A stretch of 33,607 bases of DNA from positions 88,725 to 122,331 of IMG/VR virus record IMGVR_UViG_3300036790_000261; one strand, 5' to 3'. Below the pieces are notes generated by a model. It made no database searches, was not told where the DNA came from, and saw nothing but the letters and a program-made list of their open reading frames with translations. Origin of the DNA: a virus. Its lineage: Duplodnaviria; Heunggongvirae; Uroviricota; Caudoviricetes. The translations under genes were made by a program, and so were the position numbers. Positions 10,346 through 22,826 of the stretch are shown here, in pieces (within the stretch, counting starts at the first letter, position 1; each line of letters begins with the position of its first letter).

Positions 10346-10552
10346 TCACGCTTGCTCATTCCTTTCCTTGTAGAGCCAGAGGTCTTCCGGGGTGATCCTC
10401 AGCCGCAGGACCTCGTGCATGACCAGGCTGCGCCACTGCGCCTTGGTGACCCGGCGGGTAGTGACCGGGCCCGGTGCCTGCCCGGTCTTGACGACGACGT
10501 GCGAGCCCTCGTCCCTGAAGTCGAGGATGTCCTTGATGTCCCGCGTGGTCAC
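10346..10552 (-). CDS. Hypothetical protein
   Basis: Overlaps the Ku stop; operon context. Confidence 0.55.
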   Translation of the reverse strand: MTTRDIKDILDFRDEGSHVVVKTGQAPGPVTTRRVTKAQWRSLVMHEVLRLRITPEDLWLYKERNEQA

Positions 10553-11385
10553 GCCACTGCCTTCCTCGCCCGTGGCTTGCGTACGGGGGCCTTAGCCGCC
10601 CGCGCCTGCTGCGCCTGCTCGACGGACGCGGTCAGCACGGCCATGATGTCCTGCGGCGGGGTGACCGCCGACGGGACAGCCGGGGTGCCGAGCGCCTGCC
10701 CGGTTTCCAGCTTCGCCTGGATGACCGCGGCCAGGTTCTCCCGGCTCTGGTCGGTGTACTTCTCCCATTCCAGCGGCCTGGTGAACGTCTCGACGAACGT
10801 GTCCATCATCGCCGTTTCCGCGCTGGTGAACTCCGGCACCGGGACGGTGAAGTCCGGCCGCCTGACGTCCGCCGCCCACTGCAGCCGCTCCAGGACCAGG
10901 TAGCCCTCGCCGGTGGCGTATAGCACGCCCGTGGCCTCGCGCTGCCGCACCGCGAACGACACGACCGCTGCCTTGCCGGCCCGCAGCATCGCCTGCGCGA
11001 GCATCGCGTACGCCCGCTTCCCGCTCTCGCCCGGCTCTACGTAGTAGCTGGTCTCGTGCGCGGTGCGCGGCAGGCCGGACGCGTCGGTGAACATCTCGAC
11101 TTTCACCTGCTTGTCCTTCTCGCCGTACGCGCGGGCGAAGTCTTCCTTCTCCAGGATTACTGTCTGCCCGGTGCCGGTGTCGTAGCCGCGCGCCGTGTCT
11201 GCGAAGTCGACTTCCGGCCCGTCCGGGCCGTCGGCCTCCGCGTAGCGCTTCATCCTGATCCGGCTGCCGTCTTCCCGGCGGACCTGGTGCAGGCCGAGGT
11301 CGTCTTCCCGGCTGACCGCGTTGCCGAGGCTGACCGGGAAGGCCAGCGCCGCTACCGTCAGCGTGCCTGTCCAAATGTGGCGCAT
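10549..11385 (-). CDS. ku: Ku-like DNA end-binding protein
   Basis: MRHIWTGTLTV..FPVSL..A, GYD...VILEKED, YYVEP...AYAML..AM...GKAAVVSFAVRQRE and LERLQWAADVR match the prokaryotic/phage Ku core. The start is placed at 11385 by the SD (AAGGAGAACGGC). Confidence 0.9.
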   Translation of the reverse strand: MRHIWTGTLTVAALAFPVSLGNAVSREDDLGLHQVRREDGSRIRMKRYAEADGPDGPEVDFADTARGYDTGTGQTVILEKEDFARAYGEKDKQVKVEMFTDASGLPRTAHETSYYVEPGESGKRAYAMLAQAMLRAGKAAVVSFAVRQREATGVLYATGEGYLVLERLQWAADVRRPDFTVPVPEFTSAETAMMDTFVETFTRPLEWEKYTDQSRENLAAVIQAKLETGQALGTPAVPSAVTPPQDIMAVLTASVEQAQQARAAKAPVRKPRARKAVA

Positions 11386-11405
11386 GCCGTTCTCCTTGCT
11401 GTTGC

Positions 11406-11567
11406 CACGGGCGTGCCGCGCCTGGGTTGCGTATCTGTATTGGCCCGTGCTGCCTTGTGCGGGTCGGGCGTTCATACATTGGCGCTCGTCTAGATATTGG
11501 CCCGCTTTGCCTTGTGCAGGGCGGGCGCTGCCCTTGGGGGTTTCGCTTGTATCTTGGCCCGCCCTGC
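11406..11567 (-). ncRNA. Three-unit TIGR-like stem-loop array (57-nt period)
   Basis: Each unit is stem-CCA-N9-CG-N4-CC(A/C)-N9-CG-stem. Spacer pairs: AGATACAAG/CAAGGGCAG, ATATCTAGA/ATGTATGAA, ATACAGATA/GGCGCGGCA. Linker GCACAAGGCA. A TACAGT -10-like hexamer lies just upstream. Confidence 0.75.
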
Positions 11568-11595
11568 TCCTACTGTAAACCATTGTTACACGTGG

Positions 11596-11820
11596 CTATT
11601 CCTCGCGGGTGTACTTCCAGGTCAGCCGCCCGGATTCGTACACCTGCAGCGGCTGCCAGTCCCGCGCGTCCCGCACCAGGAACAGCACGTGCTGCCCCGG
11701 CGCCCGCGTGCTCGCCTGCTCGGTGTCCTGCACTGCCGCCGCCAGGTACCGCAGCGTGTACGGGTAAATGCACGGCACCTCTGTCCCGGTGCGCAGGTAG
11801 CGGCGGCCGTCAGGGGGCAT
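11596..11820 (-). CDS. Hypothetical protein
   Basis: Operon context, overlapping stop/start. Confidence 0.55.
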   Translation of the reverse strand: MPPDGRRYLRTGTEVPCIYPYTLRYLAAAVQDTEQASTRAPGQHVLFLVRDARDWQPLQVYESGRLTWKYTREE

Positions 11821-14310: not shown

Positions 14311-14331
14311 GCTTTGCTTCTCTTCCTCGTT

Positions 14332-14375
14332 AGCGGGCGTGCGGTGTGTTGGTTTCGGTTGGACTGTGGCCCGCT
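14332..14375 (-). ncRNA. Solo TIGR-like stem-loop unit
   Basis: Minus strand: agcgggCCA-CAGTCCAAC-CG-aaac-CAA-CACACCGCA-CGcccgct. TACAGT lies 7 nt upstream. Confidence 0.65.
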
Positions 14376-14431
14376 GTTGTGTACTGTAACAGATGTGTCA
14401 AGTAGGGCATTCCGTAACTGCCACGTGGCAG

Positions 14432-22680: not shown

Positions 22681-22826
22681 GCAGTGCGGCCCGGCGCCTG
22701 TCTAGTAGGCATCGTTTCCGGGATAGCCGGGCCGCACTGCTGCTCTTTGGGCTTGCTGCGGTTAAGGCAGTGCGGCCCGGCGTTCCCAAACTGGGGGACG
22801 TATTAGGACTGGCCGGGCCGCACTGC
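22681..22826 (-). ncRNA. Two-unit TIGR-like stem-loop array (86-nt period)
   Basis: Identical 15-bp stems GCAGTGCGGCCCGGC enclose 30 nt. Minus strand: CCA-GTCCTAATA-CG-tccc-CCA-GTTTGGGAA-CG and CTA-TCCCGGAAA-CG-atgc-CTA-CTAGACAGG-CG. Confidence 0.7.

Follow-up and report, generated by a model that had tools for sequence, protein, structure and literature searches.

TIGR-Tas systems were described only in 2025 (Faure et al. 2025, PMC12045711). The published TIGR unit consists of a box C, a 9-nt spacer, a box D, a 9-nt D-loop-C segment, a 9-nt spacer and a box D, and is closed by a stem (PMC12045711; bioRxiv 10.64898/2026.09.09.750476). The box motifs may diverge provided that their edge and loop copies co-vary (PMC12045711), and in stem-loop tigRNAs only the two stem pairs beside the boxes are conserved (bioRxiv 10.64898/2026.09.09.750476, section 7). 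In the published surveys, arrays are found within the tas gene or on either side of it (PMC12045711; bioRxiv 10.64898/2026.09.09.750476). The systems closest to the locus described here combine a stem-loop TIGR array with a nuclease-free TasA, i.e., PlTasA (from a Peromyscus leucopus gut contig), BlTasA, and MbTasA (PMC12045711; Xu et al. 2026). For other TasA RNPs, RNA-guided DNA binding and reversible repression of transcription have been reported (PMC12045711, section 9; bioRxiv 10.64898/2026.09.09.750476, sections 11–12).

Here, we analyzed the last 33.6 kb (hereafter “the window”) of a 122,331-bp IMG/VR record from a soil phage with a genome GC content of 66%. The gap upstream of its ku gene is best explained as a satellite mini-array of three stem-loop tigRNA genes from a TIGR-Tas system, serving the nuclease-free TasA of the same phage, a reading to which we assign a probability of about 0.85. 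The element in this slot is real, but the system type to which we refer it, TIGR-Tas, is already known (Faure 2025; Xu 2026).

Three hairpin units in the leader of ku

The three hairpin units occupy positions 11406–11567 of the window (genome 100130–100291) on the minus strand, with start-to-start spacings of 57 and 57 nt (11437, 11494, and 11551). Together they lie in a 210-nt gap between the stop codon of an upstream 74-aa ORF and ku, on the same strand (Table 1). Repeat and inverted-repeat analysis confirmed the initial annotation on this point, which had described three 57-nt-spaced minus-strand units, each with a GC stem around 30 nt. The stems are unit-specific and 4–10 bp long, and the linkers between units measure 8–11 nt. 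In unit 1, the two arms (11516–11526 and 11557–11567) are perfect, 11 nt each, and enclose a 30-nt interior.

Table 1 Features of the ku locus and further members of the unit family (window positions unless marked “genome”).
Feature	Position	Strand	Description
tas	genome 83103–84038 (L002:9104–10039)	−	311 aa; ~4.7 kb before the window start, ~16 kb from the ku array
Further unit	6900–6931	−	Same family
ku	10549–11385	−	278 aa; directly downstream of the array, same strand
Shine-Dalgarno of ku	11391–11397	−	AAGGAGA, 5 nt before the ATG; direct reading
Unit 3	11406–11449	−	6-bp stem CACGGG/CCCGTG
Unit 2	11463–11505	−	Stem of 4 bp, or 5 bp with one bulged A
Unit 1	11516–11567	−	10-bp stem plus box C:G pair; inverted repeat
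Conserved block	11572–11595	−	Lies after the stop of the 74-aa ORF, before the first stem; ends in TACAGT (11572–11577)
74-aa ORF upstream of the array	11596–11820	−	No family; syntenic in relatives
Further unit	14338–14369	−	TACAGT 10 nt before the stem, like the ku array
Further unit	22695–22726	−	CTA in place of CCA at both boxes
Further unit	22781–22812	−	Identical 14-bp stem in common with unit 22695–22726

Each unit holds two 9-nt spacers with a box C (CCA) on the 5′ side and a box D on the 3′ side, the exception being a CCC in unit 1. The layout CCA-N9-CG-N4-CCA-N9-CG, originally proposed for all three units, is matched exactly by unit 2 (core 11469–11500, CCA-ATATCTAGA-CG-AGCG-CCA-ATGTATGAA-CG) and unit 3 (core 11412–11443, CCA-ATACAGATA-CG-CAAC-CCA-GGCGCGGCA-CG). 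It does not hold for unit 1 (core 11526–11557, CCA-AGATACAAG-CG-AAAC-CCC-CAAGGGCAG-CG), where the second box C is degenerate, the total length being the same as in the other units. Box D reads CG (mostly ACG) and not UG as in the TasR consensus. The earlier proposal that this CG stands for a variant of a UG-type box D is borne out, as the edge and loop copies co-vary in the manner that the original paper allows. The four canonical 9-mers, i.e., those of units 2 and 3, are all different, and three of the four have a GC content of 22% against 66% for the genome, in line with the differing and partly AT-rich 9-mers noted from the outset.

The whole gap folds no better than shuffled sequences (z = −0.54), its minimum-energy fold pairing neighboring units instead. 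No Rfam family was matched in the gap, and megablast of the region against GenBank phages gave no match. Among contigs of four soil DNA runs, which yielded identical fragments or unrelated short matches, no strain variation was found in the array.

Downstream, the ku product matched the Pfam Ku family PF02735 (5.1e-34) as well as phrog_4873 (3.4e-42), the latter with an alignment starting at residue 1. Upstream, the hexamer TACAGT that the initial annotation had placed before the array was found 4 nt before the first stem. It has only 9 copies in the genome, 2 of which lie within ~10 nt upstream of a same-strand unit. The block that it terminates is conserved in four related phages including this one, with the hexamer reading TACAGT, TACAAT, TACACT, and TACAAT, and we regard it as a candidate for either an operator or a −10 element (TANNNT); a sigma-70 consensus scan found no promoter at the array. 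Within the same block, upstream of TACAGT (11580–11595, minus strand), we also observed a CACGTG palindrome in three of the four related phages, the fourth having CACGCG. This palindrome may represent an operator rather than part of a promoter.

A Tas homologue outside the window and the search for target sites

A Nop/Tas gene, the presence of which elsewhere in the genome had been proposed as a check on the TIGR reading, was located before the window start (Table 1). A profile of this Tas family, built from 23 homologues, matched the solved structures of TasR (9mty, E 2.7e-7) and TasH (21kl and others, E 9.9e-6). The AlphaFold model of the 311-aa protein (mean pLDDT 78.7) comprises two long helices followed by an HhH and Nop core, and the top 11 Foldseek matches in the PDB were all TasH or TasR chains (E 4e-7 to 9e-5, TM up to 0.69 by target), with IS110 recombinases next. 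The protein also matched phrog_4285, “transposase” (2.5e-25), and its Atlas neighbors are PF02371 clusters in viruses; Tas proteins are related to the PF02371-type family (PMC12045711). Since the Nop family PF01798 had no six-frame match in the phage genome at E ≤ 1, the Tas assignment rests on the profile-to-PDB and fold matches. Six-frame matches in the phage genome were likewise absent for PF21572 and for PF23667, which is an unrelated CUB family in the Pfam version used, and single-sequence PDB searches with the 340-aa and 346-aa ORFs found nothing.

A Pfam search with the 311-aa protein found no family, nuclease families included. The alignment to TasR begins at TasR residue 119, and ~20 residues precede that point in the phage protein. 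With ~20 residues before the TasR-matching part, no RuvC/HNH domain is present, so that the protein is predicted, from its sequence and model, to be a nuclease-free, TasA-type Tas. The 3′ side of tas is directly adjoined by a run of nine units and by a tenth, and the 5′ side has more units. Taken together, the Tas homologue in the genome and the match to the published unit geometry support the TIGR-like reading of the ku array made in the initial annotation.

Two further observations concern the Tas family and its neighborhood. In the alignment of Tas homologues, a His/Cys cluster (H200, C204, C216, and H254) is invariant, and a KCKT motif is followed by a hypervariable insert, 0 to ~60 residues long; judging from the alignment, this insert could be a zinc-binding module or a site of guide units within the gene. 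Beyond the main array from tasA, ~6.2–7.3 kb before the window start, a 346-aa gene (genome 81435–82475, minus strand; L002:7436–8476) encodes a protein that is ParB/DGQHR/DndB-like by Atlas features and structure (TM 0.71–0.75) and matches phrog_5931. It is possible that this gene encodes a TasParB-type partner, recalling the published tasA-tasParB loci, and we treat this as a lead only.

Targets were searched as 18-mers in both half-site orders, A+rc(B) and rc(B)+A, since the TasH paper leaves the target orientation unsettled. No 18-mer match at ≤2 mismatches was found in the phage's own genome, where the distribution equaled that of mispaired-spacer controls, and 32 kb of relatives' DNA gave the same result, with nothing above these controls. 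Exact 9+9 matches with a gap of 0–2 numbered 3, 13, 3, and 0 in IMG/VR for units 2 and 3, all in contigs of 27–51% GC. In GTDB (185,579 species genomes), the corresponding numbers were 14, 10, 44, and 69, scattered over phyla, against a rough chance expectation of ~50 calculated for an even-composition 18-mer and three gap lengths. The IMG/VR and GTDB matches are thus about the number expected by chance, fall in AT-rich or unrelated taxa, and include none in actinobacterial phages or hosts.

The unit family across the genome and in related phages

The exact 32-nt pattern occurs in 30 copies in the 122-kb genome, nearly all of them between inverted repeats, against 0.8 expected from 30 first-order Markov simulations, an excess that excludes chance as the source of the units. 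Slightly relaxed lengths yield 30 units with a stem of 4 bp or more, all of them intergenic and each in the same orientation as one or both of its neighboring genes. The main arrays, at genome 78.5–84.3 kb, are tandem runs of 3 to 9 units (one run of nine, others of three or four) with a period of 37–39 nt, and single or paired units are found elsewhere. A separate three-unit array was observed at the far left of the genome (4773–4883, plus strand; L003), at a distance of ~78 kb from tas. In two of these units the spacers are near-identical, with 1 base different in each, which looks like a recent unit duplication.

We evaluated covariation in an alignment of 24 units with 9-4-9 geometry, which were selected by the box pattern and, as paralogs of one genome, share common ancestry. 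Overall, 86% of the stem cells in these 24 units are paired, vs 62% in shuffles and at most 53% in slid controls, and the covariation score of 0.514 for these paralogous units (vs 0.120) was reached by none of 500 shuffles. CCA and CG are invariant at edge and loop positions in the 24 aligned units, as units picked by this pattern, and all 48 of their spacers are unique, with a mean GC content of 46% vs 66% for the genome. A covariance model of the 24 units matched unit 1, which lies outside the training set, at 34.7 bits (E about 1e-4). It scored units 2 and 3, both in the training set, at 37.6 and 41.5 bits, and matched more units in the window at 22687–22734 and 14330–14377.

Syntenic contigs of relatives were reached via look-ups of Ku homologues; a related-locus search in IMG/VR for the Ku region found none. 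Two units are present upstream of ku in L005 (Ku 87% identical) and in L009/L010 (71% identical), one in L168 (58% identical), and none in the more distant L008, L011, and L170. The stem of unit 1 is identical in L005 and L009 at 10 of 10 bases per arm and differs by a few bases in L168. The boxes are conserved in the relatives' slot except for the CCC variant of unit 1, which is shared by the ortholog in L005, a unit 2 nt shorter; the ortholog in L009 has the canonical CCA. Spacer A of unit 1 is identical at 5/9 positions with L005 and at 3/9 with L009; the spacers of this unit resemble their counterparts no more than random sequence would. In unit 2, spacer A is kept at 9/9 and spacer B at 8/9 positions relative to L005 (17/18), and the loop at 1/4. 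Unit 3 is found only in this phage and is missing from the orthologous slot in L005, L009, and L168. A conserved scaffold with exchanged or constrained spacers is the pattern of guide-RNA genes.

Beyond this slot, solo units of the same layout were observed 1.4–2.6 kb downstream of ku in two relatives (L005:6466–6497 and L168:4777–4807). This phage has no layout match at the corresponding distance downstream of ku, so that the slots holding guides differ between related phages.

Of the competing explanations, the one that survives best, although we regard it as improbable, is that the units are decayed TIGR relics and now only structured elements of the ku leader, e.g., hairpins that stabilize the mRNA or modulate translation. 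Decay would account for the CCC at the second box of unit 1, here and in L005, for the weak stems of units 2 and 3, for a gap that folds like its shuffles, and for searches in which targets were not found. It does not, however, fit the state of units 2 and 3, which keep every invariant position of the family and reach the above covariance scores (as members of the training set). In unit 2, moreover, 17/18 spacer positions are kept relative to L005 while 3/4 loop positions have changed, which is the reverse of the expectation under decay. Judging from these sequence comparisons, decay does not apply to units 2 and 3, whereas unit 1, with its degenerate second box C both here and in the L005 ortholog, may be a guide that has decayed.

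Still less probable is a second alternative, in which the repeats are not RNA genes but double-stranded DNA sites (iterons, a centromere, or operators) for a phage protein such as the ParB-like one encoded near tas. The regular spacing of the repeats, the conserved block upstream of them, and the ParB/DGQHR-like gene beside the main array would all be in keeping with such sites. Against such sites stand the stems: 7 of 9 pairs change on both sides, with only the two box-adjacent pairs (nearly) invariant, so that the arms differ between units and yet stay complementary. Such complementary changes indicate that it is the fold that is preserved and not a binding sequence. In addition, the asymmetric box order always follows the direction of the adjacent gene, and the 9-mers between the boxes all differ, neither of which is in keeping with protein-binding sites.

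We give very little credence to the hairpins as intrinsic terminators or attenuators that separate ku from the operon upstream: they are GC-rich and stand just after a stop codon, but they lack U tracts, a terminator consensus scan found none, and their 30-nt loops are atypical, with an interior that follows the fixed box layout common genome-wide. The least probable reading is that the repeats are coding and extend Ku at its N-terminus by 66 repetitive residues, as suggested by an open frame (10549–11583) running from an ATG at 11583 into ku and by a 57-nt period equal to 19 codons. Stops interrupt this frame in relatives, however, three times in L005 and once in L168, and GC3 drops from 0.92 in ku to 0.67 in the gap. 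Furthermore, the phage Ku profile aligns from the Met at 11385 behind a strong Shine-Dalgarno, the number of units varies among relatives, and the 2 nt missing from L005 unit 1 break the frame.

Proposed function and comparison with known systems

Under the preferred reading, i.e., a satellite mini-array of stem-loop tigRNA genes, each unit would follow the plan box C (CCA), spacer A, box D (CG, usually after an A), a 4-nt loop, box C, spacer B, and box D, closed by its own unit-specific GC stem. Transcription of the array would proceed on the gene strand, with the TACAGT block as its probable promoter and ku probably in the same transcript, and the leader would yield two or three hairpin guide RNAs. 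These RNAs would load a dimer of the phage TasA, the two spacers would each pair with a different DNA strand at an adjacent 9+9-bp site, and the bound complex would leave the DNA uncut but block its transcription or replication. The steps from transcription and processing through TasA and DNA binding to repression are those that we infer from the published systems. Several features count against this reading, among them the 16 kb between the array and tas, the short stems of units 2 and 3 (4–6 bp around 30 nt), the fold of the gap, no better than that of shuffles, and the lack of a CUU motif.

A broader and distinctly speculative possibility, which we consider unlikely on present evidence, is that the phage distributes its guides among at least a dozen intergenic sites, some of which would have a promoter-like block to themselves and lie in the leader of an unrelated gene, ku being one case. 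The guides of a site would then be made on the schedule of its host operon, and their excision from the leader could affect the ku mRNA. We found no mention of dispersed tigRNAs in the literature consulted. If this dispersed-guide reading were true, the ku slot, conserved in place and with turnover of its spacers, would provide a natural case for studying the renewal of TIGR spacers.

The locus can be compared with known systems at several distances. With the bridge RNAs of IS110/IS621 elements and with box C/D sRNAs, it shares a bipartite guide and an RNA-binding domain of the Nop/IS110 type. Unlike in IS110/IS621, the protein here is without a DEDD/RuvC recombinase domain, and the guides are arrayed hairpins rather than a single two-loop RNA beside a transposase. 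Unlike for box C/D sRNAs, we know of no K-turn, fibrillarin, or L7Ae partner.

Within the phage itself, the main arrays have the same box layout as the ku units, short constant edges, and a position flanking tasA and the ParB/DGQHR-like gene. Their neighboring edges are reverse-complementary and form one common stem, and their period is 37–39 nt vs 57 nt in the ku units. Given their 57-nt period, unit-specific stems, and linkers, the ku units are of the stem-loop rather than the dual-repeat kind.

The resemblance is closest to the PlTasA, BlTasA, and MbTasA systems, which likewise have two ~9-nt spacers with a box C (CCA) before and a box D after. As in published stem-loop TIGR, the D-loop-C segment is 9 nt long, and a variable palindromic stem is conserved only beside the boxes; tandem units with linkers, a nuclease-free Tas, and a phage origin are further common points. 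Unlike in published stem-loop TIGR, box D is CG (mostly ACG) vs UG, and the ku-slot units lack the CUU described as a processing motif at the base of the stem. Unlike published TIGR arrays, the ku mini-array is also separated from tas by 16 kb and belongs to the leader of an unrelated gene, behind its own conserved promoter-like block; that published arrays stand beside tas reflects the way in which these loci were discovered and is not something that the mechanism requires. The CG (ACG) box D, the distance from tas, and the conserved gene-leader slot with its own block go beyond the published descriptions, as far as the text of these was available. Array finders limited to the surroundings of tas would miss such satellite units, and guide repertoires would therefore be undercounted. 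Overall, the locus leaves the known mechanism unchanged and adds a clean case from nature in which guide units stand at a distance from tas, in a conserved slot where a fixed scaffold carries spacers that change between related soil phages.
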